Below, piece after piece: positions 1,861 through 62,346 of a stretch of DNA of 64,000 bases. The stretch is from Rhynchopus sp. YZ270_cl-10. Its lineage: Eukaryota. The position numbers and the translations under genes were made by a program. The notes beneath the pieces are model-generated. The model did not search any database. It had not been told where the DNA came from and saw only the letters and a program-made list of their open reading frames with translations. Location: assembly GCA_964035575.1 (NCBI GenBank), contig OZ037834.1, positions 1,240,001 through 1,304,000 of the forward strand. Direction: 5' to 3'. The number at the start of each line of letters is the position of its first letter. The stretch's first letter is position 1.

Positions 1861-2326
1861 AAAAAAAAAAGGGGTTGGTATTAGATGATCACTCAATCCC
1901 TTTCTTGGTCACCTTATTTTCAATATTTTTTTTTTTGAATGAGCGCTTTTTTCTATGTATGATTTGCTTCTCGCATTTTTACCCCCCCCAAAATTGTCAA
2001 AAATGAAAAACTGGGGAGGTCACTGTGGGGGGCACCAAACCAATACAAAAAAAGGGGGGAAAAACAGTAATATGACATGATGTAGTGCAGGGAAAAAAAA
2101 GGTGCTTAAAAAAATGAAGCTTTGCAAAAAAGGGTAAAACGCCATTTGCAGACGAATTAAAACGAGAAAACTTTTCAAAAGGTTATAAGATGTACCCTAA
2201 GACTCTCATACGTATACAGCTTAGGTTGATAGGATGAGCTTAAGATTAGCCATCTAGAGAATGAGATCTCTCTTGTTTTCTTCTGCCAAAAAAAAAAAAA
2301 AAAACAACAAAGCAAATCCGGCACAT

Positions 2327-5300
2327 CTACTGCTTCTCCTCATTGTCAGATCCATCAGAGCTCCCTTCCGTCGAAGAAGCCTCTTCAACTGCCCTGCTTC
2401 TGTCCACCTTGCGAATCATAGAATTTGCTGCATGCCATGTTATGAAGAACGTTGCGTTCGAGATAAGAGCGCTTGCAAACAAAATCCAACACCCATCCAT
2501 CAGCTGCGTCTTCACACGGAAGCACTCCTTCGAAGGCAAGCCAATTGGGTCCGCGGTTGCGTCAATCATCCCTTGAATTCCCATGGACGTACACATTGAG
2601 GTTCCCATAAACTGCGCAAAGTTGGGCAGTTCCAATAAAGCAACGATTAACGCAACAACGAAGACCTCTAACGCACTCCACGCAGCGACAATCTCATTGA
2701 TAAAGAACAGAAGCTTTTGCCTTTTCCGGGTTAATGGTGCGGCCCAAAGAATTGCCAGGCTGATGTTCTGGATTAATGGCATCATGAAAGCGAAGATGAT
2801 GAAGGTGACCATAGTATAGCCGTATCCAATATGCTGCACTGCGCCGGAAGGGGCCTCTTCGTACATCGCCGTAGCGAGGGTTAAAACGGAGTGGGACGTC
2901 TTCAGATTGGGAGAATCGAAGAAGGTCAACACCATCCCCGCGATTGCTTCGAATTCAAACTGAAATGACTCAACGGACGCCCCCCAATACAGCAACGCAG
3001 TGCTAAAGAGAAGCAAGAACAAAACCCCTACCCCAACCCCACAGTCAGATTTAATGGAGCTCCAGCGGAAGATCGCAGCAAAGCTTGAAGTAGATTCGAA
3101 AACACCGTTGCTCTTTTCGCGGAACATACAGAGAACACGCTTTTCATCATCACCCTTCCCAATATCAAACCAAGAAGTATGGTGACGACGTGCAAATGAG
3201 TCGTTCGGGGTGTCGCTTTTGTGAAGCACCTTTCCATTATGCGTTGCTTTATACCGATCATCAAATGCAAGAGCATTTCTATGATACACAATCTGAACGT
3301 GGTTTAACAGCAAAGTAGAAATCGCTGCAGTTAAAAACGCGTAAACCCCCCAATCCGGCTGCACCTCAAGATCTGCTGCCAAAAAGTCTTTCGGCAAGAA
3401 TGACCAAACCTCCGGAGGAACCAAATGGAATCTAAACGAAACCATCATAATGGCCTGCAAGAAGTTGTCTGTCAGACTCCATTTTCCTAAGAAGTCGATG
3501 ATACGCAGCATGGTCCCTCTCCGTTCAGCAGGGAGCACGATGTCATCCGCAAACCAGCAGAACATCAACAAAAACAGCTTCATATACGGCCACACCCCGG
3601 AGGTAATCGAAATCACCACTGCAAGCAGCCTCGCGTTTCCGTTCCACGTATCTGTCACTGTAGACGCCAAATTGTAGGTATACACATTCTTAAAATCCAC
3701 CTCCGCCCCCGCAAGCTTAATCGACGCTGCAACAGACGCACCAAGGGTGATGTTTCCTGTGAAGAAGACTGTCACAGCAAGCAGCACTAAGAGGGGGAAA
3801 AGGTAGCGCATGGTGTCAGACATGGTTTCGTGGTGCACCAATGGGTCCACTTCCTCACTGCCACCATAGCGTGTGATGAGTCTCTGGAAGAGCCCTGTGT
3901 GGATGCGGTGCTTGGTGCGTGTAGAGAGCTCGCCTTCTGCGCCTTCGTCTTCATCGTCGACAATGAGAGAGGAGCATTCGTTGTTCTGCACAGCCTGTGC
4001 AGGGTTTGATGCCCTCCTTTCACGGTACTTCGCAACATTGCGTGCCCTAGTCTTCCTTGCAACCCTCCCACAAATGACAATCAACAACAAAATAGAGCCA
4101 CTGCTAATGACCAACCCATAAATCAACGTGTAGGTCTGCTTTTGAGTGATCTGCCCGCCATCAGGAACGGCAGGGGTCGGTGCTGGGGTGGGCGGGGTTG
4201 GGTCGGGTCCTCCGGTGCACTGTGCTCCTGAGGCTTGGATCGCTGTGTCGATGACGGCCTGCATTTGTTCCCGTCGAAGGACGGAGCCGATCAGGCCATT
4301 TTCGGAAAGAATCGCGGTGTTAAAGAAATCGGTCAGTTCCTTACGCCCTGCTTCTGAACGAAGCGATTCGGACAACGCATCCATTCCTGGGGTTCCATCT
4401 TCCTTGAGGACGTCGACGTCAATGAGCAGTTCTGTACCCAAATAAGCGGCAAATGAGGGTACAGCAAGCCCCTCCTGTGTTGCAAAGAGAGAGGCAGCGC
4501 AGCCAGCCTTCGCCAACCCATCTAATGTCATATCCGCAAGCCTCGTTTGCTTCACCTTTGTTTGTGTTGTCACATTTATCGCAAATTGCGCCAAAGAAAT
4601 GGACACATTAAGAATCGTATCGTAATGAGTGGTCTTCACATCAGCGCTCTTCGGCTGCAGCGATTTCATTGAAATTTGTGTGACCAAGGTAAGGTTTTGT
4701 AACACAATGTGGTGCTTCAATGCATATCCATTGCTTTTAACAGGGAGGAAGACCTGCATAACGTTTACCGCATCAAGCCCGGACACACGAATACCGTGTA
4801 CCCCTAATGCCATTGGACCTACCCCAGCATCAATTGAAACATTTGAATCGATAACCAAAGGAACATCAAGAGTTCCCTCAAAAAGCATGCGGGACACATT
4901 GTTTACGGTAGGCGAATACTGCTGAAGAACTCTGTCCGGTCCGATGGAGGGAAGCCCCCCCAAAAAGGTGTTCGCACCCCACGCTACGAGAGAGACCACC
5001 TTGCCACCTACTGTGGTAGAATCGTTGAAAAGGATGTACTCTGGTTCGGCTGTTGCCTGGAGGAGTCCTGATGAGGAGGATGGAATGCACTTCGCGCTTT
5101 TTGTGGTCTGGTTAATGTACTTCCCAAACTCCTCCTTCAAAAAGAAATCAACCAAAGGCACCATCTCAAAAGAAATCGCCGGAAGAGCCGGGAGCAGTAT
5201 CGGGCGAATCAAATAATCTTCCAAAAGGGTGCTAGCCTCATCGAACAGAGCCGACCCTTTGACAGCAATTTTTTTGATATCAGCGGTGGCAATGAAGAGA

Positions 5301-6589
5301 GAGGTGATACGAAGGTATTTAAGAGGGAACGTTGCGCATTCTGGGGTCGATGCGACATCAATGAGATTCTCAATCGTAAGGTTGCCGATGCCAGAAGTGT
5401 CAACCAAAAGCACTGCAGTGAAATTTGCCACAAAATTGGTGATCTCATCGACAGAAAGCGAAACCGTCTGGGTGGTGGTGTAGCCAGTCAAATCATTCTG
5501 CAGGCCAATCTCCACATCCACCTCGGCAGAGAGGTTCGCAAACCCAATCGACCCAAACACCGCATTCGGCGCCTCTCCAGGATACATCTTCAATACAAGA
5601 TTGTCGACAGACGCGAACCCCATCAAATCCGCGCTTTTCACTGCAAAATGTGTCACCGTAATTTGAGGTCCAACCTTCACCCCTAGAGGAAGCGCTGAAG
5701 ACGAAGACGAAGATGACACCCTCTGAGAGCTCTCAGACACTTCTTCGGACCCCCAGATGCCTTTGTTCAGTGCAGTGAGACCGAGCTCGGTGAGGGTGGA
5801 AGGGATGGGTGTTCCTAGAGCGGAGGAGATAGCATTGAGTGCATCAGGCCCGTTGAGGGTGGCCACCGAAGCACCAAAGAGGTCTGTGACCAAGTCTGCG
5901 GCACGCTCTGCAACAAGAGAATCGCTGAAGGCTGCAAAGTGTTTCATTGTGTCCGATCCGAGACGTGCCTCGAGGTCTGCCTCTTCAGATTTAACCAGGG
6001 TGACTTCGTTTTGCTCTCCAACGTTTGTTATGGCACCTTCCGCTTTGTTTACTAACGAATCCAACATAGATTCTACCTTTGCAGTAAGAAGGGTTGTCTC
6101 GCAGACCTTTTCTTTGACCTTCTTTTCGACTTCGCGGGCAACTTCGTAACGTACGATTCCGCCCATTTCTATGCCGTCGATGCTGAGGGTGTGGAGGGTC
6201 AGTTTCAACTCGCAGGTCACCACCTCAGCAGCAACGGAGGAGTTGGAGAAGAGGCGAGGGGGTGTGATGGAGAGGGCAATGTCGGTGTCGATCTTCATTT
6301 CGGCGGAGGCCTGTTGGAGGGTCGCGTTGTGCTTGTTGTGCAGATCCCCGGCCACAGAGATGTCAAAGACGGTCGCCACACCAACAGCGTTCTTCGCATC
6401 TGGGCCAGAGAGGACAGCAGACGTAACGGAAAGGTTCCCGATCAACCCTTCGAAGGTGTAGTCGCCAAGAAGGCCGAGGTTCAAGTCGTATTCGCCGGAG
6501 TCGAGTTCGACACCCTCAACGAGTTTGTCGAAGACCGTGAAGTCCTGTGCCGCTGCACATTGCGACAGCAATAAAACAATCAAATTCAT
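2327..6589 (-). CDS. Large membrane protein: signal peptide, BPI/LBP (TULIP)-like ectodomain, C-terminal tandem PqiA-like multi-TM modules
   Basis: 1420-aa ORF. Hydrophobic N-terminus; ...EVEKKVKEKVCETTL... resembles the BPI N-domain; PT-rich linker and TM; motifs GKWSLTD and AAWSALEVFVVALIV resemble the PqiA WSMxDVF motif twice. Confidence 0.7.
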   Translation of the reverse strand: MNLIVLLLSQCAAAQDFTVFDKLVEGVELDSGEYDLNLGLLGDYTFEGLIGNLSVTSAVLSGPDAKNAVGVATVFDISVAGDLHNKHNATLQQASAEMKIDTDIALSITPPRLFSNSSVAAEVVTCELKLTLHTLSIDGIEMGGIVRYEVAREVEKKVKEKVCETTLLTAKVESMLDSLVNKAEGAITNVGEQNEVTLVKSEEADLEARLGSDTMKHFAAFSDSLVAERAADLVTDLFGASVATLNGPDALNAISSALGTPIPSTLTELGLTALNKGIWGSEEVSESSQRVSSSSSSSALPLGVKVGPQITVTHFAVKSADLMGFASVDNLVLKMYPGEAPNAVFGSIGFANLSAEVDVEIGLQNDLTGYTTTQTVSLSVDEITNFVANFTAVLLVDTSGIGNLTIENLIDVASTPECATFPLKYLRITSLFIATADIKKIAVKGSALFDEASTLLEDYLIRPILLPALPAISFEMVPLVDFFLKEEFGKYINQTTKSAKCIPSSSSGLLQATAEPEYILFNDSTTVGGKVVSLVAWGANTFLGGLPSIGPDRVLQQYSPTVNNVSRMLFEGTLDVPLVIDSNVSIDAGVGPMALGVHGIRVSGLDAVNVMQVFLPVKSNGYALKHHIVLQNLTLVTQISMKSLQPKSADVKTTHYDTILNVSISLAQFAINVTTQTKVKQTRLADMTLDGLAKAGCAASLFATQEGLAVPSFAAYLGTELLIDVDVLKEDGTPGMDALSESLRSEAGRKELTDFFNTAILSENGLIGSVLRREQMQAVIDTAIQASGAQCTGGPDPTPPTPAPTPAVPDGGQITQKQTYTLIYGLVISSGSILLLIVICGRVARKTRARNVAKYRERRASNPAQAVQNNECSSLIVDDEDEGAEGELSTRTKHRIHTGLFQRLITRYGGSEEVDPLVHHETMSDTMRYLFPLLVLLAVTVFFTGNITLGASVAASIKLAGAEVDFKNVYTYNLASTVTDTWNGNARLLAVVISITSGVWPYMKLFLLMFCWFADDIVLPAERRGTMLRIIDFLGKWSLTDNFLQAIMMVSFRFHLVPPEVWSFLPKDFLAADLEVQPDWGVYAFLTAAISTLLLNHVQIVYHRNALAFDDRYKATHNGKVLHKSDTPNDSFARRHHTSWFDIGKGDDEKRVLCMFREKSNGVFESTSSFAAIFRWSSIKSDCGVGVGVLFLLLFSTALLYWGASVESFQFEFEAIAGMVLTFFDSPNLKTSHSVLTLATAMYEEAPSGAVQHIGYGYTMVTFIIFAFMMPLIQNISLAILWAAPLTRKRQKLLFFINEIVAAWSALEVFVVALIVALLELPNFAQFMGTSMCTSMGIQGMIDATADPIGLPSKECFRVKTQLMDGCWILFASALISNATFFITWHAANSMIRKVDRSRAVEEASSTEGSSDGSDNEEKQ

Positions 6590-7858: not shown

Positions 7859-9295
7859 TCACGCCAGGGCCGCGCTGTACGCACACCTCCCTGCCACACA
7901 CTGTGGCACGCGTGCGGGGCAGTCGCATGTGCTGATGAACCTGCTGCTGCCGAAGCACTCCACAAGGACATCCTTCTTCGCGCTGAATGCGGCCATCTCG
8001 GCGTCTGTCGCACGCACACTCGCAAGCAGGTTCCTGGTGCACCCACAGCTCGTTCCCACCAGCGGGCGTGCCGGCTCGCATTCGGCACTCTCCCTGCAGG
8101 TCTGCACGGTGGTGAGGGCGGCTTCGTACTCTGCCTCCGCGGTGCTGCAAACAGAAACAATAGGTGCGGGATGTGTGCCCACAAGGTTGTGCGCACACAT
8201 ACCCGCGTCCGTGCACCTGAAGCCGTCAGAGGCCGGGCAGTCGCAGATGGTGATCAGGGGTCCGTTGCAGGTCTGGTACTGTCCGAGCAGGGTGTTAAAC
8301 GTCGCCAGGTCGGTTGCACTCAGGTCAGCACGTGCCACCTTGTTGCGTGTGCATCCACAGCCGGTTCCGGACAGCACAGTGCCACAGTCGGCTGCTGCCG
8401 AGCAGGTCTGGATTCTCGCCAGGAATGCGGTGTAGTCGGCCGTGATCTCGTCACAGGTCGGCTCCGGCACAGGCACGGGCACAGGCGCAGTCACAAAGTT
8501 GTGTGCACACACACCCGCGTCCGTGCACCTGAAGCCGTCAGAGGCCGGGCAGTCGCAGATGGTGATCAGAGGGCCGTTGCAGGTCTGGTACTGTCCGAGC
8601 AGGGTGTTAAACGTCGCCAGGTCGGTTGCACTCAGGTCAGCACGTGCCACCTTGTTGCGTGTGCATCCACAGCCGGTCCCGGACAGCACAGTGCCACAGT
8701 CGGCTGCTGCCGAGCAGGTCTGGATTCTCGCCAGGAATGCGTTGTAGTCAGTTGTGATCTCGTCACAGGTCGGCTCCGGCACAGGAACGGGCACAGGTGC
8801 AGTCACAAGGTTGAACGAGCAGCGGTTCTCCGAGCACTTGAAGCCAGAGGCAGCCGGGCAGTCGCAGGTCGAGAGGAAGCTGCCACCACAGGCTGAGTAC
8901 TGCGCCTTCAGGGCCTCGAAATCTGCCACCTGCTGTGCGGTCAGGTCAGCACGTGCCACCAGGTTGCGTGTGCACCCACAGCTTGTTCCGGTCAGCACAG
9001 TGCCACACTCGCTCGCAGTGTCGCAGGTCTGGATGGTCGCAAGGTAGCTGGTGAAGTCGGCTTTGATCTCGTCACAGGTGGGTGCGGGCTCAGCACTCCA
9101 GTCGCAGAAGCCCGCTGCAGTGCACGTTGCGACACCACCGCAGAGCTGGACCCCAATGTGCCGCATGCACTTCGCATCGTTGTGGCAGCGCACCGTCGAC
9201 ATCAGGCGCGGCACCAACGACGTGCACAGGTGGCTTGCGCTCGCAACATCCACACACGCTGAGAGCAGCAGCACCGACGCAACTGTGGCACGCAT
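7859..9295 (-). CDS. Secreted cysteine-rich protein with four ~100-aa repeats
   Basis: 478-aa ORF with signal peptide. Repeated core GTxCGCTRN...TxCDCPA; repeats 2 and 3 are almost identical in DNA with a 312-bp period. Confidence 0.85.
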   Translation of the reverse strand: MRATVASVLLLSACVDVASASHLCTSLVPRLMSTVRCHNDAKCMRHIGVQLCGGVATCTAAGFCDWSAEPAPTCDEIKADFTSYLATIQTCDTASECGTVLTGTSCGCTRNLVARADLTAQQVADFEALKAQYSACGGSFLSTCDCPAASGFKCSENRCSFNLVTAPVPVPVPEPTCDEITTDYNAFLARIQTCSAAADCGTVLSGTGCGCTRNKVARADLSATDLATFNTLLGQYQTCNGPLITICDCPASDGFRCTDAGVCAHNFVTAPVPVPVPEPTCDEITADYTAFLARIQTCSAAADCGTVLSGTGCGCTRNKVARADLSATDLATFNTLLGQYQTCNGPLITICDCPASDGFRCTDAGMCAHNLVGTHPAPIVSVCSTAEAEYEAALTTVQTCRESAECEPARPLVGTSCGCTRNLLASVRATDAEMAAFSAKKDVLVECFGSSRFISTCDCPARVPQCVAGRCAYSAALA

Positions 9296-11061: not shown

Positions 11062-12307
11062 TTGCAGTAGGTAGGAGTAATTTTATTTTTTTTTGATCAA
11101 ATAGAAGTAAAATTCTATTATTTCAGGCACGATGTCACAGTAGGTAGGGGTAGTATTGATTAACAGTTTTGTAAAACAAAAAATTTGGCTGGTTCTCTCT
11201 GTATTGCTTTTGGCTTTTGTTTTTTGTGCCTTGTAGGGAGTAGGGGTAGGGGTGATACCTTTGAATGTAAACAGGTAGTATTAGGAGGTTAATTTAGGGG
11301 GAAGAGGAGGAAGGGAGGGGGTTTTTGTACCAAATGTGTTTTAGATCCCTGAAGAAAAAAATGGGGGAATATAGAAGTGAAGTGTGAAGAGGTGGAGGAG
11401 GAGGAGGGAGGGAAGAAGAAAAAAAATATTTCGCTTTTTTTTTCCTGCTTTCTGCATTTTTTTTTAAAGGGGGAGATTGGGGTAGGCGGGTAGGTATATT
11501 TGCTTTTTTATTTTTTTTTTTGGAAGATTGCTCTGGGTGTTTGTTTGCTGCTGTTTTAATCTGGAAAAAAAAAAAATATGGGTGTATTGACCACCTGGGA
11601 CCAGGGACAATTTTTTTTCCCCTCCCTAAGCTTTTCTCTCTTCCCCCCAAAAAAATACGAAAAAAGGAAACATAATTTTAGGAATAGAATCACCTCCCTC
11701 CCTGACACTCGGAATACACAGGGGGCATTTATACCAGCATAACTGGAATTATCCAAACAAAATCAAAAAAAAAATGGGGAAAACAGAAACTGAACAGCGA
11801 GGGCAAAGGACTTCTCCCTCTTGTGTTCTCAACATTTTTTTTCTGTTTTCGATATTGCAGGAACCATCCATTTTTTCCTTCCTTTTTTTTTGTTAATGTC
11901 ACTGACAGTCCCCCTCCCCACTCTCTGTTGGTTGGCTGAGCGAAACAGGCCCTACTCGTTGAAAATACCCTACAATTTCAAAAAAAAAAAAAAAAAAACA
12001 CGATTATGTTGCAAAACAATCGCCTAAGCACCGAATCGGTGGTACTAGGGTTGGCCGAAGCCTCTTTTTGTACGACGGAAGGTAAAGACGCTTTCTCTCG
12101 GGAGGGGAGGAGAGGGGGGGGGAATAGGGAAATACTAAACTCTCACACTAAGCACACAAAAAAAAAATTATAAGACATTTTTACCTCCCGTGTTGCGTCG
12201 CTCTGTCTCCAGCTGGGTTTTGTTTTATGATGTGATATGAGAGGGGGTATAATCACAGAAAAAAAACAAAATGTCAGCTGTTTTGATGGGACAAAAAAAA
12301 ATGAAAA

Positions 12308-12348
12308 GTTTATAAGATGACCCTAAGCCTCTCGTGCTTAGTCACCTT
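12308..12348 (-). repeat. 41-nt hairpin element (family A), representative of roughly 30 copies
   Basis: Minus strand AAGGTGACTAAGCACGAGAGGCTTAGGGTCATCTTATAAAC then T-tract. Clear copies at 12453, 26188, 28308, 32124, 49447, 52694, 55544, 61544 and 62133. Confidence 0.9.
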
Positions 12349-13141
12349 AAAAATTGGGGTAGTGCATTTCACCCAATATCTCACCCCTCCCAGAAGCAAT
12401 TCACATCCCTTTTTCATATTTAAAAAAAAAAAATAACAGAAAAACAAAAAAAGTTTATAAGATGAACCTAAGCCTCTCGTTGCTTAGCCATCTTTAAAAA
12501 AAAAGGTGGATTGAATGATAAGCAGTTGTGCTTAGTCACCCTAACTCCTCCTTGGTACCCCCCCGCAACCCAAAAATGAAAATACCCCATAAAAAAAGGT
12601 TGAAAGCGCACAACGCTCACTACAAAAAAAAAAAAATCCACAACGTGCTGCTTCCACCGTGAAACAGAGCGTCTCTAATCCTCCTTCTTGAACGACCGTC
12701 CAATGGCGTCGGGGGTCTTGATCGCGAGTATGCTTCCGAGTGCCATGTAAAGGCAGAACAGCAGGAACAGGCCAATAAAAAGCCCAGTTGCAGCGTCAGG
12801 TCCGATTGCCAGATCGGTGCTGGGGTCGGTCGGGTTGTATGCCATTTGTTGTAAAAGAAACTTTGTGTATAAAGGCCTCCTGTGTGCGGTGGGGGTTTGA
12901 AAAAAATAGCGGTTTTTGGAACGGAACTCACAAAGTACTAGTGTACAACTTGAGTGGATAATGCAAAATCTACGCCAGATATTGCGTGGTAATTAGTGGT
13001 TTTGGGGGAAATTCTGAGAGGAATATGGTCATTTTGTCAGAGTTGCTGAAACATTGAACACAACATGAAACAAAATCAAGAAAAATTCAAAACAAAAACA
13101 ACAAATCTATCGTGTAGATGCACCCCCTAATACAATTTCAT

Positions 13142-14082
13142 CAGTCCTATTCGTGGTCATTTACCCCCCCCCCTTTGGGTCGGTGAACCGGAAATTTTGG
13201 AAATAAGGGGGTAAAATAAGGGGGGGGGGTAAATGAGGGGGTAAGGGGGGGGGGGGGGGGGTAAATTACCATGTTATGGGTTAGGTCATGTTTTTGGGTG
13301 GGAAGGGGGGACTTTTTCATACACGGTGGGGTAAAATTTTGCACAACACAGTGTGACGACACATGCTCTCATGACAAATGTGTCATCTGAAAAAAATTCC
13401 TCACTTCCTTGCGACATCGCAAGCAGTCATGCATCATGGATCCACATCATCCACATCATCTTTCTGCCCGTGCCTGAACCATGACTGGTCAGGGATCACG
13501 GTGTTGCCTCAGATTCCGTGAGGTGTCCCAAACGTATCGCCCACGCAGCACAAACGTACCCACCTGCACCCATCTACCTGCACACGTGATGTAAAACAGG
13601 GTGAAAGATTATTTGCACTTTACCCCTTTCCTCATTTCGAGCTTGTCTCCAGCTTCAAATCAGACGAGTCCTACAGTCTCCGGATGTACGACCCGCTGAA
13701 CACATCAGCCCCTCCCAGCAAACCATAAAACAAAACAGGTATGCGCTGCACTAAGTGAAACTATTACCCCATAATTACACGCCAGGTGGTGTTTTGCCAC
13801 TCGTTCCCTGAACCCCCTCGCTTCGCTCGTGGGTTTAGGTCACTCGTGACAAAACACCACCTGGCGTGTTGCGGCGATAATTACCCAAAAATTACCTGGT
13901 GGCTGGTACTTTACCCCCCCAGGGGGGTAAAGTACCAGCCACAACAGGGTATTATAAGGGGGGGGGGTAAATTACCATGTTATTTTGGCCTGAACCGTTT
14001 TTTTCTGAAAAAGGGGGTAAAATAAGGGGGGGGGGTAAATTTAGGGGGGGGGGGGGGGGGTAAATGACCACGAATAGGACTG
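13142..14082. mobile_element. 941-bp non-autonomous TIR element (MITE) with AT target duplication
   Basis: Perfect 32-bp TIR CAGTCCTATTCGTGGTCATTTA(C)10; AT at 13140-13141 and 14083-14084; subterminal G-tract repeats; internal hairpin at about 13777-13869. Confidence 0.85.
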
Positions 14083-14123
14083 ATGCAAACTTTTTTTCAA
14101 AAAAAAAAAAGGGAAAAGTCACT

Positions 14124-49019: not shown

Positions 49020-49144
49020 TGATGTGATCACCCAAACGGATTCTCCGTGGTTCCCCCGAAGGTGCTCCGCAAAATCTTAATATAGCCCGAAACAGTTCTC
49101 CCGTGGTTCTTCCGTGGGTTGTCCGTACCCCTTGAATCACACCA
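49020..49144. mobile_element. 125-bp TG..CA element with 5-bp TSD
   Basis: TSD AAGGA on both sides; homolog of 26253-26377 with identical length. Confidence 0.85.
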
Positions 49145-49525
49145 AAGGACCTGCAAAGTCCCTGATTATGGTACCTACCCCCCCCAATACCATTTATAAT
49201 TTCCTTTTCAATAATTTTGTTGGTTGAGTGCAACTGCCATACGACAGCCTTTCACCTTTTTTGAAGTGGTGTCTAATCACCACTGCAAAACTTTGTGCGT
49301 AAAGTGTGTAGCGTATATTCTGTGTTGATATTTTTTTTTGCAATACGCTCCCACTGACTACCTGGCCGTGAAGAGGAAACCTCTTTCAGGCTTCAAATAA
49401 AAATTGAAATACAAAGCCCTCTCTTGGCAGTGCAGCTAAAAGAAGGGTTTATAAGATGAACCTAAGCCTCTCGTGTTTAGTCACCTTTTAAAAGACCACT
49501 TTGTGGTTGGGAAGAGGGGGGAGGG

Positions 49526-49659
49526 TAATGGTGGCAGTATTGTGGCGGGAGCCCATTGGAATACGCAAAAATACATCAAAATACAACATGTGTATTGTGA
49601 TGTATTTTGCTGTATTTTACGTATTCCAATGGACTCCCATCACAATACTGCCACCATTA
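49526..49659. repeat. Long imperfect palindrome (MITE-like)
   Basis: TAATGGTGGCAGTATTGTG ... CACAATACTGCCACCATTA. Similar stand-alone hairpins at 31201-31307 and 53803-53946. Confidence 0.75.
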
Positions 49660-50023
49660 GGGCAGAGGGAAGGAGTTTGGATGGAAAAGGAAGCGCTTCT
49701 GTTAGTGCATTCACACTGTTTCGCTGGGAGGGGAAGAGCTGCCGCGTAGTTTAAATACCACACTACACCATACCACCAAAAGACGCCCGCTAGCAAAAAA
49801 AAAGAAGAAGTGAAATTGTTAATACAACGACTGACCCACAATGTCAGCCCCTGATGAAAAGCACAAAGGATCCAATAAAGTACTAAATTTTTCGTCATGG
49901 ATCTGCACAGACAGGCGCAAAGTTACAGTAAAATACGTCGGCTCATCGGTGACTTACAACGCCTTTTTACACTGCATTATTTTCCCTTTAAAAAAAAGCA
50001 AGAAAAAGCAAAAGAAAACACAT

Positions 50024-51334
50024 CTACTCCCCTTCTGAGTCACCTAGCCTTTCAGACTCACAGGACATATCATCAAAGCTAAACAACGGGTCTCCCTTCT
50101 TCTTCTTCGCCGCAGCCTTCTTCACCGTCTTTTTCACCGCCTTTTTGCCACTCATCTTCTTCTTCTTCCCCTCCACTTCTATCTTCCGTTTTTTCTTTTC
50201 TGGTGCTTCCTTAGGTTCTTCCGCACCCCGCTTTACTCTGGGAATCGCTCCGGCTGCGGAAAGGAATGCAAGATTTCTTCCAACCGGGTTGGAATTGACT
50301 GAGAAGAGATCGGTGTCGAGTTGATCTTCCTTCTTTGCCCTGCTTTTTGCTGGAATGAGACCCCTTTCAGTGAGCGCTGTGTTCAGAGCCTCGTCTGAGA
50401 GCTCTTCGGGGTCAATCTCATCTGGGTTGAGGTGGAGTTCCATTCTGTTGTGCAGATCTTCTAAAGAGCCTTTGATGGGCAAATTCGCGTCGAGCATTAC
50501 CTTAACCAATGATGAGCGACTGATTTTCCTGATATCTACCCTTGGAGCCACGTAGCCAAATGGTCCGGTAGGTGCGGCTGCATAAGGTGACCGCAGTGCC
50601 TTCGGTTTGGTTGTCTTTACGACAGCTTCTTCGGAAGAATCATCATCAAAGCGGAGAGACGACACTACACCATGCAAATGATTCGTCAACCGTTCACGCA
50701 CCTCTTTAATGAGACCGTCTGTAGAAAGCCCAGCCTCCTTAAGATGCTCTCGAACCGTAAGATGCGGTAGTGCACGAATCGCGCTTTTTGTCAGCTTCGT
50801 TTTCTTCTCCGGAGTATCAAACAACGGTGCAGGGGAGTACAAACCTGTTGTCCCCTTTTCCGGTTTTTTTCCAATCAAAGCTTTTTCAAGGCGATTTCTA
50901 AGGGCAACGACTCCCCCGGTTGTTGCCAAACCCCGTGCACGCAGCTCCACCCGCAGCTCCGTCACAGAAAGCTGCGTGGTGTCCAGATTCACCGGGGTTG
51001 TAGTAAAGATTGATGCCGTCGCGTCCCCTTCCTTCACCCTCTCCTGTGCAGCCTTGATGCGCGCCTGGACAACCGCCTCTTCCTCTTCTCTTTGCGCAGC
51101 CGCGTAGTCGAAGGCCTCAGTACCCCATACGTTAGAAGGATTTCCTGGACGGAACGTCGCCGTCTCCGTCGGCGAGGAAACAATCCGCACCGACTTCTTC
51201 CGCCCAACAGGGGTCCCCGGGGTCCCAGGAGGGGACAGAATTGAGACCGGTACCCTCACTGCAGACGGCGCTGGGGTTGAAACACGTTGGTTCTCCTTTC
51301 CAGTCTTCACAGATACATCGCCTTTTGACTCCAT
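50024..51334 (-). CDS. Multi-SAP-domain protein with Lys-rich C-terminus
   Basis: Likely ATG at 51334 (MESKGD). LSVTELRVELRARGLATTGGVVALRNRL is a canonical SAP motif; three weaker repeats follow. Confidence 0.8.
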   Translation of the reverse strand: MESKGDVSVKTGKENQRVSTPAPSAVRVPVSILSPPGTPGTPVGRKKSVRIVSSPTETATFRPGNPSNVWGTEAFDYAAAQREEEEAVVQARIKAAQERVKEGDATASIFTTTPVNLDTTQLSVTELRVELRARGLATTGGVVALRNRLEKALIGKKPEKGTTGLYSPAPLFDTPEKKTKLTKSAIRALPHLTVREHLKEAGLSTDGLIKEVRERLTNHLHGVVSSLRFDDDSSEEAVVKTTKPKALRSPYAAAPTGPFGYVAPRVDIRKISRSSLVKVMLDANLPIKGSLEDLHNRMELHLNPDEIDPEELSDEALNTALTERGLIPAKSRAKKEDQLDTDLFSVNSNPVGRNLAFLSAAGAIPRVKRGAEEPKEAPEKKKRKIEVEGKKKKMSGKKAVKKTVKKAAAKKKKGDPLFSFDDMSCESERLGDSEGE

Positions 51335-54300
51335 TTTCTTTTGTGAAAGTTTTGCGGGAAGAGAGGGGGAAGGGGGAAGGAGGGAAGGGGAAGGGGGGTT
51401 TGAGTAAACCCGCAAAGATCTGAAGGGTGCGAAAAAAGGGTGGTGGTGGTGAGGGATTTGATGCATCAAAAAGTGAATTTGCCGTGAATAGAGAAGCTCT
51501 GGGGGTTGTGGAGGTACAGAACAAAAAAAGTTGGCTTGAAATACAACACAGCCCTCGGTGAGAAGGAGTACGGTGCCACGAGGCAATCCAGGGTGGTTTT
51601 GGAGTCTCATCAAGAGGGCGAATGTATTTTTTTTTTGTTTCGGTAGTAAAACAAAGTGAAGTCATGCAGGCACACCTCCGACTAACCCACAGTACGATGC
51701 CATCTGGATGAAAGCACAAAAACTACCCTGCGGCCAACAGAAGAAGAATAAAGATTAAGATATCATTTTCAATCGAAAAGATGGAGTTTTATCAACAGAA
51801 GAAGAAGAAGAAGAAGAAGAAGAAATAACAAAATGGGGGTGTCCTTGCATTTGAGTTTAAGATTCTTGGATTTTTTTTTTAGGAGGTTTTTTTTTTCTTC
51901 TTTTTTTTTTTTTTTTTGCCTTGGGGAAGAGCACAAAGGGGGGGGAAAAGAAAAGACTATAACAACAGTTGGAAAGGTTGAAGAAAAGAAAAGAAAAAAC
52001 AAAAAAACCAAAACGGAAAACTTTTTTTTGAAATGAATGGATGCGGTCTTGATACTAGACTTGACACATCTGAACGACGATGATATAAAAGCGAAGAAAT
52101 AAAACTGTAGCGCACCACCAAAAAGGGTTTTTTGAAAGATGAATTCTGCCTCATCTACACCATCCTTCAAAAAATTTGACAAATCTTGATTTTTAAGACT
52201 CACGAAAATAGCATCCAAAACTTCAAAAAAAAAAAAGGGGGGGAAACGTGGACACGATGGCCAGTTTGATGTGGGAGAGCGTCAAAAAAAAAAAAGTGGA
52301 CGAAAATACTGGTTGAGAATTACTCTCCAAAAAAACGTCAAAATTTTTTATGCCCTCCCGCTCAAACTGGCCACCGTGGAGGGGGGGGCGGAGAAGGGGG
52401 AATGAAGAAAGGTTTTATAGGAATCTATCTAAGCCTCTCATGCTTAGCCAACCTGATCACGAATCGTTGTCGAACGAACTAGCAATGGTAATCAATGGAA
52501 AATGCTCATCCTATACGAGGGGAAAAGACGGTGGGGAAATCGAAGGGGTGTCGGAACACCCGTGTAGTGGGGGAATTGACAAAAAATCGTCAAGAGAAAA
52601 GGAAAAAGAAAAAAGAAAAAAAAAAAAAAAAAACTAAATTTCATATACTTTCTTCAAAGAAAGAGAAAGCACACAAAGAAGAAAAGAGAAAAAGTTTATA
52701 AGATGAACCTAAGCCTCGTGCTCAGTCATCCTGGGAAGAAAAAAAAAATTAGATTCATGTACTTTCCATTAGAGAAATAGAAAAGCAGTTGAGAAAGAAA
52801 ATACCATACTTAAAAGATGAATCTAAGCCTATCACGCTATAGTCACCCAAAAGAAGAAAATAAAAAAAAAAATCTGAAAGTGCGAGCATCTCTGCAGACA
52901 CAGGCACTGCTGAAAAAAAAAATAAGGGAATGGTTATTAATGCAGACACCCCAACTGACCCACGTACGATGTCGGCCATGGATGAAAGCATAAGTACCCT
53001 CAAAAAAAAAGGGGGGGTAGAACGACAAAATGCTCGTGGACCCACCTTCAAAAGAGAGAGAGAAAAGTTTAACAATCCCAAGCAAAAGGCGATCTGTAGG
53101 GTAGAGAACTAATACCGTATTCGTAAAAGAATTATCGATCGTAACAAAGGCTGAACTACCAGAAAAATCTTGAAAAAGGTCGCACATTTATACGATTGAT
53201 ATAATTTTTGTACGAATACTGTAAAAATAACAAAATAACAAAATAACAAAATGCAATTTAAATACCAACTCATTCTTGACCTTTTGGGTAACCAGGCGAC
53301 GCCGGCCAAAAGTAACAACCCAGAATGAGAGCAGTTTACCCCCCTTTTTTTTTCAAAAAATAAACAAATAAGGAAATTCATCCCTTTCCTCTCATCACGC
53401 TTATGCTTTTCCCGGTCTGTACTGAACGGGAAATATGCTTGTATACCAAGCGCATGCTGAGACATACGGTGGAAAGGGTTTAGTCTCCTTAACACGAAGC
53501 GCACACAGAAACAAGAACCATACGTAGAGAAAGAAATAAAAAGAAAAAGAGAGAGAGAAAGAGAGAGAGAGAGTGTGTGTGTGTTCTCTATAAAAGCGAA
53601 GGGTACAAATGTTTTGTCACGTTTTGCAAAAAATGAAAAATAAAAAATAGAGAGAAGTTGAAAGTGCAAGCGCCTCACCGTATATCGGCGGACGCAGGGC
53701 ACTGGTTCTCTGGGTAAAAAAACAAAACAAAACAAAACGAGACGTGCTTTCAAAAAAAAAAAAAAAAAAAAAAAACATTTTTTTTTTGCTAATACCAATG
53801 CACACCATGGATTCATCAGGACAATACGAGCGTTATGACGTCGTAATTACGAGGGGGGTGCCCGCGTCATGACGACGTATTGCGATAATTTCCCCACGTT
53901 TTTTCCTTCGTCGCTCGTCACGTAATGTCCTTACGAGTCCATGGTGCAAACACCCCGAGGGGTGGTGCACTAATACTATTTAAAAAAAATGCGCTTTTAT
54001 GAGATGTTGTGATTGATTTTTTTTTTTTTTTTTTTTTCTCTCCTCCTCTTTGCTTTTTTTTTTTTTGAGATCGCGTTCTATACCATATCAGAAAAGGGTA
54101 ATATTACACAGGGAAAAAGAAGAAGAAGAAGAAGAAGAGGAAAAAAAGGGTTGTAAGATGAATGTGCCTCTCGTGCATACACACATCTACAAAAAAAAAA
54201 AACAACCGCAACAGCAGTTGAGAGTATTGCCTTGGATGTGTCAAGAATCAGATTTAAAAAAAAAAGAAGAAAAAGAAAACGACTTCAGGATATGACAATT

Positions 54301-55039
54301 TAACGAAAAAGAAAAAAAAAACACTTTTTTTTTTTCGGTTATCGCACCGCAAAAGGCTTTGTGCATTTTTTTCACTGCAGAATAATGTGTGAGGTATGCG
54401 TCAGTGAAGAAAAAACCCAATCCTCTTAGACGGGCACGCACCATCCGTCGTTTTCCATTTCTATTTCGGCAATGTTAGATAAACCCCCCCCAAAAAAAAA
54501 ATTTGTGTTGTCAACCGCTCAAAGCATAGGGAGGGGAGGGAGCAAAGCGAAAGCCTTGTTCCTAGTCAGAGTGCTCTGCGGAGTGAAGGTGTTTTGTTTT
54601 TTTTTTTTTGTTTTTGTTGTGTCGACAATCGCCGAGTAAACCCACCAGGTGGGAGAATTCGGGTCTGTACTATTTTTTTTTTTACATTTTATTTTGCAGT
54701 GTCCCCCTCCCCCCCCATCCAAGAGACGTTGATTTTTTTTTTTTTTGTGCAAAACCCTTCATCGGATCAACAAAACAAAGTGAAGTTGATAACGTACAGA
54801 GACACCTCTGGAACCTCATCCCACCTTTATAACAAGCTGCAAAAAACCTGGAAAAGGCTCCGTTCAAAAAAAAAATTCGCAATAGAAAAGAAGAAAAAGA
54901 AGAAGTGAAGTAGATACTGCAAGACGCCTGTAGGGGGACGCAAGCACACCAACATTCTGTAGAGGTTCTCGAAACCCCCCAGAGTGCTGCGAGAGCTGTA
55001 CTATCCCCCCCACCAGAGCGCTGTATTACAGATTTGCTT

Positions 55040-55077
<38 letters not shown>

Positions 55078-56500
55078 GAAAGCAGGCACAGTCATTTCCC
55101 CCAATCCGCTTGGGAAGGGGTGATTACATGTTTTTTTAAAAGACTCAAGAGAAAGAAAAAAACAAGAGAAAGCTTATTAAGACGAACTTAAGCATCACTG
55201 TGCATAAGCCATCTAAAAAGACCTCACCCAAATCTCCTCTGGGTCTTAGGGAAGAAATGGGGAGAAAAATCAGGAAAGAACAGTTTTAGGTGTGGAACCT
55301 AAAAACTTTGCGGGGTTGGTCGCCTTAAGAGGAGGGGGGTTTTTTGTGAGGGGTGAGTTGACTGAAATACAATACCCTGTGCCCATATCCTATAATAGGA
55401 TCTAGGCAGACGAACTGAGCTAGCTCAACGTCTTCTTGTGTAGACAACCCCACTCACCGTGTCGCAATAAAGTTCGCAGTAACTTCCAACAAAATAAAAA
55501 TTAAAAAACAAAAAACAAAAACCATACACAAAATAAAAAAAAAGTTTATAAGATGAACCAAGCCTAACATGCTTAGCCACCTTTAAAAAGAAGAGAAAAC
55601 TCCAAAGGGGGGAAACGTGCTTCCTCGGCACAAAAAAAAAACATTGCTTTTTATGGGAATCTTTTGGTTTAGCATTTCGTACAGTTTGTCTTTTTAGAAA
55701 GAAAAAAACTGTACGAACTGGCCGCTTTGGCTTGCGTCTGTAAGGACTGCCTTGAGTAGATACTTTCTGTATTAGCGCACGATTGATCGCCTTTTTAGAA
55801 GGCACGCAACTTACTGTATCGACACTCTGCCTAAGTACCTACCCCCCAGATGGGGGTAGCTATTCATAGACAAAGCGCGATAGGTCTTTTGTGCCGTACG
55901 GAAGGTATAGACGTAGGTTTTCGTCCTGAGCTTCTTCGAGAAGCTTAAGAAAAAAAAATTTTTAATTGTTTGGTTCTATCAGATGTCATGTGAAACACAC
56001 ATCATCATGAATGTGTTTCACTGTACCATACACGCAAAAAAAAAAAGGTGGACCAAAAAAAAAAAAAAAAAAATCACCTAGATGGTGCTCCGGGAGGGGT
56101 CGATATTGACAGGCCGCTGACACAGGGACTCTATACACACACCCCCTGATATTGACAGGTCGCCGACAGGTCACTGACAAAGGTCGTTGACCGACTTCCG
56201 AAAGCACCACTAGAGGGGAAAAAAAAAAGTGGTGCAGTCCATATCTTACAGTGTACGATAACTATTTTATTTTGGTCGTTTGAATGCTCCACTCTGCTAC
56301 GGGTGGACGCATTAGTGAAAGGTGTGGAGGTGTAAATATAAAGGTGGTATTTGACGGTGGGGCTAAGAGAGAAAAAATCACTCAACGAAAAAAGTGCACA
56401 GAGATAGAAAACCTGTACCATGAGCTACGCCTTTTACATCTCGAGGTGCACAATACGTCTCTTAAAAAAGACGCACGTCAAAAAAAAAAAGGAAAAAAAA

Positions 56501-56940
56501 CAAGTAATTGCTATCGGAAAAAAAACGGGGTGTGATGTGGAACTCCATCCTGTAGAAATAATCTACAACACGCCCAGCATTCTGCTCTTCTGCAGGTATG
56601 CTAACGCTCTTCGTACGCTGCCAGACCCACTGGGACGCCAGCATCTGAAACGTTCAAGAAGAGGGGGCTGTCCTCTTCGTCCAGCACCATCTGCTCGATA
56701 GCGTTGTTGGACGTCGGCTCGGCAGGCTCGGCGTGTTCCAGCTCGTTTTTGTCCACAGGCTCCCCACATTGTCGTCGTCGTTGGAGCAGTGCGGAAGGAA
56801 CACAGAATGCACAGACTACAACACATCGATCACACCAGGCACATCAGCACCTCCAGCAAATCGCCAGGATGCTACGGTGGTTTCGAAAAGCGCGCGGAGT
56901 TTTCCACAGCACACCCCGCTTTTTTCTTAGCAATTACTTG
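56501..56940. mobile_element. 440-bp element with ~47-bp imperfect TIRs
   Basis: CAAGTAATTGCTA...GGGGTGTG.TGTGGAA.CTCC is mirrored at the right end; TSD not resolved. Confidence 0.7.
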
Positions 56941-57046
56941 TCCTTGTTGTTATTGTTGTTTTCAACCACCTTCCTTCAACCCTTGTAGGATCAGTTGGTA
57001 TTTTTTTCGCGAAAACATGAAATTACACATTTCAAGAGAACAAATT

Positions 57047-57577
57047 AAAAAGGGTCCTTATTTGCATTTTTGGGCTCCGCCCGTGCAGTGGTGGGGTCAA
57101 TCTCGAAAATTGGACAATTTTTTGAGCACTTAAATTTTGAGAAATATGAGCCCGGTTCCTTATACGTGGGGCCCATTTTCAGCTAAAATTTTCCTCAAAA
57201 TCTGGTTTTGTAAAATTGACCCTTTCCCCCCCCCCCCACATCGATTTCAATACTATACCTTACTTCACCTACGGTTCCCCTTACAGGGGGGGTGAAGGAA
57301 GGTAAGTTGAAAAAAGGGTCCTTATTTGCATTTTTGGGCTCCGCCCGTGCAGTGGTGGGGTCAATCTCGAAAATTGGACAATTTTTTGACCACTTAAATT
57401 TTGAGAAATATGAGCCCGGTTCCTTATACGTGGGGCCCATTTTCAGCTAAAATTTTCCTCAAAATCTGGTTTTGTAAAATTGACCCTTTCCCCCCCCCCC
57501 CACATCGATTTCAATACTATACCTTACTTCACCTACGGTTCCCCTTACAGGGGGGGTGAAGGAAGGTAAGTTGAAAA
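57047..57577. repeat. Tandem duplication, 264-bp period
   Basis: Two copies, with one substitution seen (GAGCAC/GACCAC). Confidence 0.95.
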
Positions 57578-57627
57578 GGGAAAAGTTTATCATATGACCC
57601 TAAGCCTCTGAATAATGTAATTATATT

Positions 57628-58826
57628 GTTAAATAAAGTATACGAAAGGATTTGGCACTTTTAGTGGACTCATTGCGATAACTGACGATGTGAATTTTTG
57701 GTGGTGGTAAGTGAGTGTTCGAAAGTTAAAAAGGGGGTGGTGGTGTGTGTCTTTTTCTTGATCAAGTAAGAAACAAACAACAAGAACAACACACAAGGTT
57801 GGAACTGGATGAAAGTAAAGTTGAATGGTAAGCAGGTAAAGGTATATAATGTCAGAGCGATTATGCGGGAAGAAGAACAAGGAAGCCAATATGCTGAGCC
57901 GTCTGCAGCGATGCAGTTCATGCAACAAATGAAAGAAACGAGTTAATCAGGTGTGAGCCGCACGTCGTGCTCAGACACCTAGCAAAATACTGACAACTTG
58001 GCTGTGTGAGCAAGGCTACATCACGCCAAGGTCGTCAAGGGGGCGCAAAAAAAATTTTTTCTTTTGCACCCAAAAACATTTATAAAAGTGGAGGGGGGGG
58101 TGCAAAAATATTCTTGCACCCCACTCCAAAAGAAAAAATCTGGAGGGGAAAGAGGGCCCCGAGGGGCCTGTTGGGCCGTACCCAAAAAAACAAAAACAAA
58201 AACAAAAAAAAATAGAATTCTTTCGGAATTCATTGTAATCTTTTTTGCAAATTCCCTGCAGAGCTTTTTCATTCACCGTTTACCACATAAACCAAAGTGA
58301 GCAACTATGCCTTGACTGGGGTCTGCTCCTCTGGTATTGATGTTGGTTCGGACGGCGGCACCTCCCCACACACAGCGTGTAAGGGAGCAAGGATGTTTTC
58401 ATCCGCGGCGTCACAGTAACGCATGGCCATTTGCGTACTGGCCCAGCCTGAGTGCAGCTGCATCTGAACTGCGCTCAGATCGCTCGCAAACATTTTTAAA
58501 ATCTGTCTGTGAAAAAAAGTGGGAGTTCTTGTGAAGTTCTGTTCCAATCCGAGTTTGACAGTGTTTTTGCCTTCCAACGCGGATGTGAGTAAGATCATCA
58601 TTTTTGTACCCTCTGTGATTCGTGTGTCATGTGCAACTTTTTCGCGCGCAGCGCAAAAAAAAAAAAAATCCCACCCAAAAAGCTCAGACCGGGTCAGACC
58701 GGGGTCTTTTTTGAAAAGACCCAAATCGATCTCCATCTCTGGTGTCAAAAAAATAAAACAAAAACATAAAAATAGGGAAAGCGTTACTGACTAAAAGTGC
58801 CAAATCCTTCGTATACTTTATTTAAC
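57628..58826. mobile_element. 1.2-kb element with 37-bp TIRs and a possible tyrosine-recombinase relic
   Basis: TIR GTTAAATAAAGTATACGAA(A)GGATTTGGCACTTTTAGT; internal minus-strand HR-x20-W-x8-Y (LHSGWASTQMAMRY). Confidence 0.6.
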
Positions 58827-61800
58827 TTTGGAATATTTAAAAAACACTCTGTCCCAGTACTATTGTTTTTTTCTTTAGATTTTGTTCTCAACTGCAAAAA
58901 ACATTTCACTTCAAGAGTAGTTGATCTTCAAAAAAAAAAAAAAAAAAAAAATGCTGCGATAGATTCACAGAACAGCTCCTGAGCCATAGAAAAGCAGAAG
59001 AAGACCCCCATGAGATTCAGTCAAAGCAAAGATGCATTTTTTTTCTTTTTCTTTTTTTTTGATAAATTGTTTGAGCAGTGCAATTGCCTCAGGTTGCCAC
59101 AGTTGTTGCAACGAACAAAAATGAACAAAAATATATCTGGGTAGAGGGCTAAGAGGAGGGGGGCTTTATTTATTTTTTTTAAATCAAGTAGAAATTTAAA
59201 TCTGTTATCAATCAGGCACTATGTCATCAAAAACGCAAAAAGAAGGGTAAAAAAAAAAGAAAAATAGTTTCGGCCCCTGCCTCGAGACTATAAAATACCA
59301 CGGGGGCCTTCTCAATAGGCCGTAGGTAAAAGCAAAAAAAGGAAAAGTAAAAATGATGACGTAAGTTGGTGTCTCAAAGTGTCTCTTAACTGGAAGATCA
59401 TCCAGTGGCGAACGCACCATGCCTGTTATGTTTCTTTCATTTTTGTATAGCGGGTACTATTTGAGGTACTGGTTTGCAGCAGGAGGGGGGATACCTGACT
59501 ACTTTGTCGGTCGAATTCGAGAGAGACATAGTAGTTTACGGTAACTTCTTTGTAGTCTGTACGCCGAAGTGTTAACAAGAGAAGCCAAGGAGGAAAAATA
59601 TGAAGAAAAAACAAAAAAAGCAAAAAAAAAAAAAAAAAAAACAACAACAAAAAAAAAAAAACGAAGTACAAATACAAAACAAAGCAGGTTCAAGAAAGGG
59701 GTTTTTGGGTTGGGTGCTGTGCTCGCCTCTCTCTCTCTCTCTCTCACACTTCTCCCATAAAATACGGAGAAAAATTGTCGCCGGAAAACATTTGAGTTTT
59801 GTTGTTGGTTTTGTTTTCTTACAGGGAGAGAAAAAAGAGCGAAAGAAAAAGGGAGTCACTATCACAAGAAAGAAAAAAAAGGCAGCTTTTTTTTGTCTGC
59901 AAAAAGAATTTATTTAGAAACAAGAAAGGTTGTAAAATGAATATGCCTCACGTGCATACACATCCCCCATTCCCATAAAAAAAAGCATCGTCTTTTGCAC
60001 CAAACGTTACTGTAGGCCATGAGACAGTAGTATCATGTTTTGTGTGCCACGCGTTAGGTGTGTTGATGGTTTCTTTTTCCTTTTCTGATAATTTGTTGGA
60101 TTAGTGCACCAGATAGACAGTCTTCAAGGCACTTCCAACTAAATATCATATTAAGGAAAAGTTGTGGGATGAGCCCAAGCGTGACTGTGCTTGGTTTACC
60201 AGGAAAGAACGTATATGTTTCATTACCGGGTTTCTATTACCCCGGTTGGGTAATGAAAAAAAAGCTAAAACCCCGGTAATTCCCGGTACCCGGTAATGGG
60301 TGCCCGTCCATGATAAATAAATAGTTTTTTTTTTTTACAGAATTGCCAAATCCGCTTGCCCAATAAATATCGCCCACACCACAATCGGAGGGGGGGTGAA
60401 CCTAAAATACACGACAGACTAGTCAGGTTGGACTACCAGTTGAACTACTAGTCGTAACGACTAGTGGTGAACTAGTAGTGTTACTGGTGAAAACACTAGT
60501 TATTTGGCCTAGTAGAAACTGCTAGTCGTCCCCTTGATTAGCCAGCCGTGTCTGATCTGTGAACCACAAACCACAGGGGTTTTCGCAATCAAAAAAAAAA
60601 AATCAGAAAGTAAAGAGAGAAGCTAATGCAAACGCCTCACCGTTCATCGGCGGACGCAGGGCACTGTCAAAAAAAAAAAAAAAAAAAAAAAAGAAAGGGA
60701 AACAAATCATGTATTTAATGAGGCTTGGGTTGGCGGGGGTAAATGACGGTTAATTTTTGTTCGATTTTTAGACTACTAAAATACGGGATAGCAGCCACTA
60801 ATCAGAATTTTTTTTCTTCTTCGGTTCAGGGTAGTCATGGGGTATAGACCAATCGACTACCCTATTATTCCGGTTCGCATTTTGCTCTCTTGTTTATTTT
60901 TGTTGTGTATCATATCAGCATTCAAAAAAAAATGAGCATATTTTTTTTTGAGTGAAACACACAAATAACGAGGTCTGGGTTTGGGTGAAGTTAAAAAGCG
61001 ATCGTGTGTTTTCACAAACGGATGGGAACCTGAAGGGAAAGGGAAAAAAGAAAAGAAAAAAAGAATCTGAACAGAGGACTTAAGGTGGTCCGTCCCCCCC
61101 ACTAAGGGGTACACGCACACAAATTTCAAAAAAATTAATAGAAATGTTGATAGATCAGTGAAGGTGTTTTTTGTCACATAAATCCCAAATCTGCTGTGCT
61201 TAGTCACACCTCCGAGAAAGACACGCCTGGTGTGGCTGAAGGGGGGTGATTCGCACTTCTTGTGCACTTTTTTCACACCCCCATTCAGTCATCCAACGGA
61301 AGGGCAATTTTTTCGGCATACAAAAAGAAAGGTATATAAGACCCTAAGCCTCTGGTAGCTTAGCTTAGCCACCTTGCTGCAAAAATTTAAAAAAAAGGAA
61401 AAACGGTGTGAGGAATATCCTGGGGTTTCTGACATCAATGTAAAACGTTAAAAAAACACACAAAATTTGACGGCACGTGGAGAGATCACATACGTTAATA
61501 TGATACACACAGGGGTGAGCTATCAATCTATTTCGTTAAGAACGTTTATAGGATGAACCTAAGCCTCTCGCTGCTTAGTCAACCAGAAAGAAGAAATAAA
61601 GCCTTTTTTTGACGAAAAAATAGGCAGTTTCTTTTGGTGAGATGAACCTAAGCATATATTAGGTCACCTTCAGTTAAGATGAACAGACGAAGAGCTTCGA
61701 GGATTACCATACATTGTGGCAGCGTCCACGAAAAGGCCCCCTTAAAGCATCCGTGATTATTGGTATTTCAATAAGCATGGATGTTAGCTTTAGGGCGTCT

Positions 61801-61928
61801 TTCGTGGACGCTGCCATATTTCACATAAACAAAGATAAGACCAATGAGTACGGAAAAAGGGTTTCTTTCATGGTGGCTATTAGATGGGCAAATTCTGATA
61901 AAGAAAAATACATCAAAACACTACCACA

Positions 61929-62085
61929 ACCACCTGATCTTTTTTTTTTTTTTTTTTTTTTTTTTGCTTGAAATTTTTTGATGATGTTTAGCAGAGTGTG
62001 GTGGTATTTAAACTCCCCCCCAACCTAACTAAACTCCATCAAAAAAAAATTCAGGCAAAAATTTAAAAAAAAAAAATCAGGTGGA
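61929..62085. mobile_element. TCCACCTGA-family MITE with 4-bp TSD CACA
   Basis: CACA|ACCACCTGAT ... ATCAGGTGGA|CACA. Confidence 0.7.
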
Positions 62086-62346
62086 CACAGCCAAACACTA
62101 GAAGGGGTTTTATTTGAGAAAAGAGAAAAATCTTGTAAGTTGAAACCTAAGCCTCGCTTAGTCACCTCATGAATGAATGTGCAAAAGCACAGCGGACGAT
62201 GGAAGGGGATGGAGTGGATAAGGCGTGGGGGGAGGGGGATGGGGGGATAAAAAAACAACAAAAAACAACAAGGCAAAAAAAAAAAAAAGAAAATAACCTC
62301 CAAGAAAACAATATGGTTCCCTTTTTAAAAGGGGAAAAAAAATTTT

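Follow-up and report, generated by a model that had tools for sequence, protein, structure and literature searches.

As far as the excerpts of the papers cited here go, the closest described counterparts of the elements reported below, a set of 41-nt hairpins that we call family A, are the 3' tails of stringent-type LINEs. In zebrafish, the tails of ZfL2-1/2 and of the SINEs derived from such LINEs consist of a short stem-loop at the terminus and, 3' of it, a simple tail (PMC4176376, PMC3747384), the stem-loop of these L2-clade LINEs being recognised by the ORF2 protein (PMC4176376), and the LINE resident at our locus is built in the same way. Family A differs from these LINE-derived SINE tails in that it has no tRNA, 5S or 7SL head, in that the whole element is tail-sized, in its T-rich tail and in that its cognate LINE was not found (PMC4176376, PMC3747384). 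EhSINE1 of Entamoeba, which has about 70 bp of 3' end in common with its LINE, EhLINE1, is also a non-autonomous element of a protist, sits at T-rich sites (flanks 55% and 52% T) and has target site duplications (TSDs) that are hard to see; it is, however, 451-684 bp long against 41 nt, and the excerpted text describes no polycistronic strand rule for it (PMC2996970). The SIDER, RIME and NARTc elements of trypanosomatids are likewise euglenozoan short retroposons in the intergenic DNA of gene arrays with a T-rich upstream motif, but are defined by a 79-bp ingi signature, whereas family A is shorter than that signature and hairpin-only (PMC2323293, PMC2689281). Plant p-SINE and Au-like SINEs end in a 3' poly(T) comparable to the T-tract of family A; the poly(U)-recognising LINE that would serve them is left unidentified in the excerpted text of PMC3747384, whereas here a T-ended LINE is present, as a candidate partner only. 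Family A works like the tail of a SINE, yet falls outside the SINEs in the classical sense because the 41-nt element has none of the Pol III heads (tRNA, 5S, 7SL), and ARAGORN predicted no gene. SIDER, RIME and NARTc are, moreover, much longer than family A.

The stretch of DNA analysed here (the window) is 64,000 nt long, and every long open reading frame in it that has a Pfam match is encoded on the minus strand. Since the best named relatives of its PDK1 kinase are EukProt entries labelled Hpha and Sspe, which we take to be Hemistasia and Sulcionema, and its LINE protein matches many proteins of Diplonema papillatum, the coding content points to a diplonemid gene array, presumably transcribed polycistronically. 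In D. papillatum, arrays are unidirectional, transcripts undergo trans-splicing and repeats account for 52% of the genome, and the authors of the genome paper state that the non-coding parts of its transposons have yet to be rigorously identified (PMC10161547). No element like family A was found described in the open-access literature on diplonemid repeats, SINEs and retrotransposons, nor did the open-access literature on short SINEs, Platy-1 among them, list one under about 100 bp, neither of which proves absence; the repeat supplement of PMC10161547, possibly not searchable and able to bear on novelty, gave no match for 28S, SINE or hairpin. Other genes of the window include one for a protein of 1420 aa with PqiA domains (2327-6589, minus), one for a Cys-rich repeat protein of 478 aa with no Pfam match (7859-9295, minus) and a Plus-3 domain gene (18420-20873, minus) split over overlapping frames by frameshifts or assembly errors.

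A sequence-only reading of the window had reported about 30 same-strand 41-nt hairpins pairing AAGGTGA with TCATCTT and CTAAGC with GCTTAG, together with a subfamily A' of altered inner stem, and had placed none in coding sequence and none on the plus strand; this description, which applies to the minus-strand sequence, is borne out. Iterated nhmmer searches gave 25 matches at E<0.01 among 39 listed at E<=10, against a best E of 0.5 on the reversed window. The Infernal-type check suggested by that reading, a covariance model built from 26 aligned copies of A and A', returned 27 matches at E<=0.011, all on the minus strand, among 40 listed at E<=10; just three matches fell on the plus strand, all at E>3 and two of them the self-complement of minus copies. 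All 27 span the whole model, so that length is near-constant, the best A copies stand 1-4 bases apart, and none overlaps a coding sequence or the tandem arrays that together make up 39% of the window. Adding seven decayed copies gives a working list of 34.

Copies of A itself, all located by the covariance model on the minus strand, lie at 12307-12351 (near consensus, E 5e-10), 12452-12497 (178 nt past the stop of a small ORF), 26187-26234 (with an insertion of 3 nt), 28307-28351 (identical to the 12307 copy at 41 of 42 positions), 28425-28469 (decayed, the inner stem having one two-sided change), 32119-32162 (75 nt past a stop), 43305-43348 (divergent and just 5' of the LINE, E 0.011, outside the training set), 45950-45994, 49446-49490, 52412-52457, 52693-52735 (2 nt deleted from the loop), 61543-61588 and 62130-62171 (loop mostly lost, 176 nt past a stop), with altered loops at 26378-26422, 52807-52852, 55172-55218 and 55543-55586. 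The same model places A' on the same strand at 43770-43812, 44408-44451, 54148-54190 and 59927-59969, in decayed form at 22380-22421, 36393-36434 and 46319-46362, and, as A'-like copies, at 1465-1508 and 52129-52169. One further A' copy (25113-25155) sits within a GT-AG intron of the PDK1 gene (185 nt, 25267-25083), whose flanking exons align to the relatives P0002 and P0003. The decayed copies on the working list, found with nhmmer and the covariance model, also on the minus strand, are at 2180-2225 and at 23155, 36875, 43542, 57584, 61331 and 61632.

Each unit has two stems, an outer one of 7 pairs and an inner one of 6, with a small bulge on the 3' side between them; its loop of 7 nt is able to form a closed GAGA tetraloop, and a tail of 6 nt leads into a run rich in T. 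The AYGAGAG loop, previously called invariant, is intact in only 10 of the 27 copies, and its conservation in subfamily A (77%) is below that of the stems (88%), the 3' tail standing at 75%. The claim of compensatory stem changes survives in part. Across A and A' together, 87.5% of cells pair and every one of 500 shuffles falls below the covariation score of 0.293, but 35 of them have at least as many pairs changed on both sides as the real alignment, under a control that in both cases ignores relatedness, and RNAalifold returned no consensus structure from the mixed alignment. Most two-sided changes divide A from A'; within A (16 copies, 208 cells) there are 163 unchanged cells, 18 with a one-sided and 5 with a two-sided change that keeps the pair, 20 broken and 2 gaps, and of the five two-sided cells four fall at the two outermost pairs and three come from one copy. 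Structure has therefore been kept between the subfamilies while single copies erode. All 36 copies folded fold better on the minus than on the plus strand, partly owing to G-U pairs: G-U and A-C cells stand at 47:9 in the MAFFT alignment, at 22:9 without three 5' columns and at 10:6 for A alone without those columns. A mutational bias between the strands of transcribed DNA would produce an excess of the same sign.

The resident LINE, of the endonuclease-RT (APE-RT) type, occupies about 43127-36992 on the minus strand. Its presumed ORF1 (41496-43127, 543 aa), so named from its position, has no Pfam family; ORF2 (37047-41075) carries endonuclease and RT domains, the only ones that Pfam recognises in the element, and is interrupted by a premature stop at 37731, beyond which the frame runs on to the same natural end as that of P0121, a family of 37 member sequences to which the LINE is 96% identical over the RT region. 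Two further families, P0122 and P0123 (58% and 52% over the RT region), have the same end position and the same last two residues as P0121. After the natural stop come 55 nt (36992-37046), the 3' UTR, which as read and folded form an outer and an inner stem separated by an internal loop, capped by a loop that ends in AGA-G and followed by a short tail and the T-run; since hairpin and T-run follow the ORF2 stop, the T-ended orientation is the sense one. This tail, family C, occurs at nine places in the window, the LINE's own included, all on the minus strand (the others at 1782-1860, 29951, 44078, 52862, 53642, 54772, 54900 and 60604). Its 5' ends vary and reach into the LINE body, forming a series from full LINE to hairpin-only copies, some of which are lone tails between T-runs.

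Several observations on the LINE stand apart from its relation to family A. Its natural stop codon lies within a first hairpin (37047-37070, minus) whose loop we find reminiscent of a tRNA T-arm, and the Val-Arg terminus common to P0121-P0123 suggests that nucleotides are conserved at this hairpin. A pyrimidine tract followed by AG just 5' of ORF1 (43127-43200, minus) is as expected if the LINE were trans-spliced from read-through RNA. Two tail copies (53642-53711 and 60604-60668, minus) have in common an extra small loop hairpin that the resident LINE lacks and that may reflect either a sister LINE or an independent spread of the short form.

Family B combines the loop of A with the architecture of C; its six hairpins (26441-26476, 35272, 35899, 45842, 49401 and 51533) are all on the minus strand, and two of them extend 5' into long forms (35259-35388 and 35886-36011). 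Family D (1713-1783, 22523-22580, 44459-44530, 49828-49867, 51661-51721 and 52931-52993, minus) is a sense hairpin of ~65 nt in three parts followed by T-rich sequence, and begins, by eye, like the 5' arm of A (A-D p=0.38). Family A and the LINE tail have shape, size, T-rich flanks and orientation in common, while their similarity in sequence is marginal: uncorrected over 28 comparisons, and against shuffles that ignore shared hairpin bias, the pairwise links are A'-C2 (p=0.002), B-LINE (0.010), A-B (0.018) and A-LINE (0.030), with A-D, A-B2 and A-C2 not significant. The covariance model of A and A' matched neither B nor C at E<=10 in the window.

The sequence-only reading had taken the hairpin for an RT-recognition signal acting as a minimal SINE, and had proposed looking for a LINE that ends in it. 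None was found, either in the window or among metagenome LINE loci. Nor was there an ORF2 remnant 5' of any copy in the window, a match to the exact 25-nt pattern of A in JGI metagenome and IMG/VR contigs, or a tail HMM match at E<0.2 at 38 related metagenome LINE loci, which are distant (best segments mostly 21-46%, one 54%) and of which 22 had their 3' sequence inspected. What speaks for an RT-recognition hairpin is that the tail of the resident LINE is a hairpin of matching build with a T-run, and that this tail also occurs alone. P0122 and P0123 are candidate partners of family A.

The flanks of the copies are rich in T: the T fraction is 0.54 in 5' flanks and 0.59 in 3' flanks against 0.32 (3' p=4e-10), and in the 3' T-run tail and target sequence are indistinguishable. 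The 5' end is fixed, none of the 27 copies having a 5' extension with shared sequence. The contigs of run X3 bear on the same point, 93 of them matching the copy at 49446 and departing at 49487, where the outer stem begins, into flanks whose minus strand is rich in T; so many contigs with one break show many loci with a fixed 5' end, although X3 may be the window's own source. Flanks of the 34 copies have only short, mostly T-rich matches, and TSDs are inseparable from T-runs. No empty site appeared among the joints listed, which come from contigs of four runs on 43200-62240 and are mostly of high-copy repeats. T-tailed families do not cluster with one another (13 observed against 12.7 expected, p=0.50).

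The strand bias is common to the tailed repeats of the window. Six other short families contribute 37 minus-strand matches out of 38 in the window, without control matches (minus to plus: C 9:0, B 6:0, D 6:0, E 6:0, F 5:0 and T 5:1, one weak match being common to E and T), and several tail-less two-copy repeats are found in both orientations. Families E, F and T, short repeats with A-runs at the gene-strand end and nearly all sense (minus at 655-726, 23355-23417, 25625-25662, 29355-29412 and 59054-59111, at 29877-29944 and 47316-47381, and at 22890-22952, 47062-47126 and 63950-63998, the last group having a plus-strand copy at 44890-44946), are likely passengers of another, A-tailed LINE. One short family was at first read as of the terminal inverted repeat (TIR) type; being A-tailed and 5:1 sense, it cannot serve as a DNA-transposon control. 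The supply of T-rich targets was rejected as the only reason for the orientation, since T-runs on the minus and plus strands (124:82, or 1.5:1) do not account for 27:0. The purging of antisense inserts and transcription-linked insertion are candidate causes. With the bias common to all tailed families and the loop variable, the earlier argument from invariant loop and strand bias to selection on every copy fails.

We put the probability at roughly two in three that family A is a promoterless retroposon of the LINE-tail type, copied by a LINE reverse transcriptase into T-rich sites; that it has a retroposon origin of some kind, plain truncation from LINE RNA included, is a broader claim that we hold with good confidence. 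Polycistronic read-through would place sense copies in pre-mRNA, introns and spacers, so that no promoter would be needed. The ORF2 protein of a sister LINE might then bind the stem-loop, by analogy with the zebrafish system, and use the U-rich tail for priming where the target is rich in T, reverse transcription would end at the base of the hairpin, and selection on source copies would maintain the structure while inserted copies mostly decay. A bolder version, which we offer tentatively and think rather less likely than not to hold in full, is of a guild of self-seeding hairpin RNAs of 41-60 nt in diplonemid arrays, their sense copies read through, bound by a cognate LINE enzyme primed at the U-tail and precisely reinserted, with the loops and stems of A, A', B, C and D diverging to suit different LINEs. 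Were it true, these would possibly be the smallest mobile elements known.

Foremost among the alternatives, though unlikely, is a host cis-acting RNA element, in which a GAGA-loop hairpin and U-rich tract guide polyadenylation, trans-splicing or decay, whether native or co-opted like the SIDERs of Leishmania. All 27 copies are sense, the stems are conserved more than loop and tail (88% against 75-77%), a copy lies within 200 nt of 4 of 11 gene ends, and SIDERs too are enriched in the sense direction, both across gene arrays (about 4:1) and within 3' UTRs (PMC2689281). The proximity to stop codons noted by the sequence-only reading is real for individual copies (75 and 176 nt, for example) but not significant overall, 1.7 gene ends being expected (p=0.068), and nearest copies range from 75 to 7475 nt from stops. 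Co-option in mRNA processing, also raised there, sits poorly with an intergenic distribution of 0 to 13 copies per interval, 4 of 11 intervals having none and one having 13, and with an intronic copy; about one copy per gene at a set distance is not what is seen. The loop, intact in a minority of copies, and the same strand bias in six unrelated families weigh against the cis-element too. An obligatory processing signal is unlikely, while co-option of single copies is possible.

Quite unlikely as well is that the copies are plain 5'-truncated ends of a sister LINE, made from full-length RNA by reverse transcriptase dropping off at the hairpin base, the short copies never being sources; this differs from the promoterless retroposon only in whether short copies are sources. 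Family C, with its series from full LINE to hairpin, and the long and short forms of B are what truncation would produce, and the sister ORF2 families P0122 and P0123 have the end position and final two residues in common. Against it stand the lack of any shared 5' extension in the 27 A copies and the single base at which the 93 contigs break.

Much less probable is a tiny DNA element, of MITE or Helentron-like kind, whose imperfect inverted ends form the stem. The conserved stem would then reflect terminal recognition or quasi-palindrome repair. The outer arms are indeed inverted repeats, some copies are bordered by TA at either end, and T is abundant in the flanks; but orientation is 27:0, sequence is conserved 3' past the stem (75%), the 5' TA is not conserved, and G-U exceeds A-C on one strand. 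The combination of TIRs, a fixed TSD and both orientations that marks a MITE was not seen. Least probable of all is a dispersed fragment of the sarcin-ricin loop of large-subunit rRNA, for although D. papillatum has about 3600 28S pieces (PMC10161547) and the 8-mer round the GAGA loop is shared in full with the loop of E. coli 23S rRNA, beyond the 8-mer agreement falls to 3 of 13 and 5 of 15 bases (p=0.086, with E. coli rather than host 28S as reference), and Rfam, where a match would have told against the sequence-only reading, gave none at gathering score and, on 12250-12600, seven at chance level and no rRNA match at E<=10.

If family A is indeed a promoterless retroposon, it shows how short an RNA can suffice for a LINE enzyme acting in trans where polycistronic transcription makes a promoter unnecessary, and offers a natural series of tail variants for studies of stem-loop recognition. 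The T-ended LINE would then be the kind of partner only supposed, in the excerpted text, for poly(T) SINEs (PMC3747384). For scans of euglenozoan arrays there is also a caution, namely that same-strand covarying hairpins can be retroposon tails and not regulatory RNAs.

Other repeats lie in the same window. Tandem arrays with units of 7-9 nt occupy 13950-16400 and 26770-27700, with a large inverted arrangement in the tandem-array region around 14160-14330 and 16000-16400, and contig depth marks 44470-45740 and 55900-57800 as very high-copy repeats. Two dispersed repeats of 150-200 nt are each present in two copies, all sense (minus strand), at 26168-26380 and 49000-49147, and at 30730-30931 and 46680-46883.
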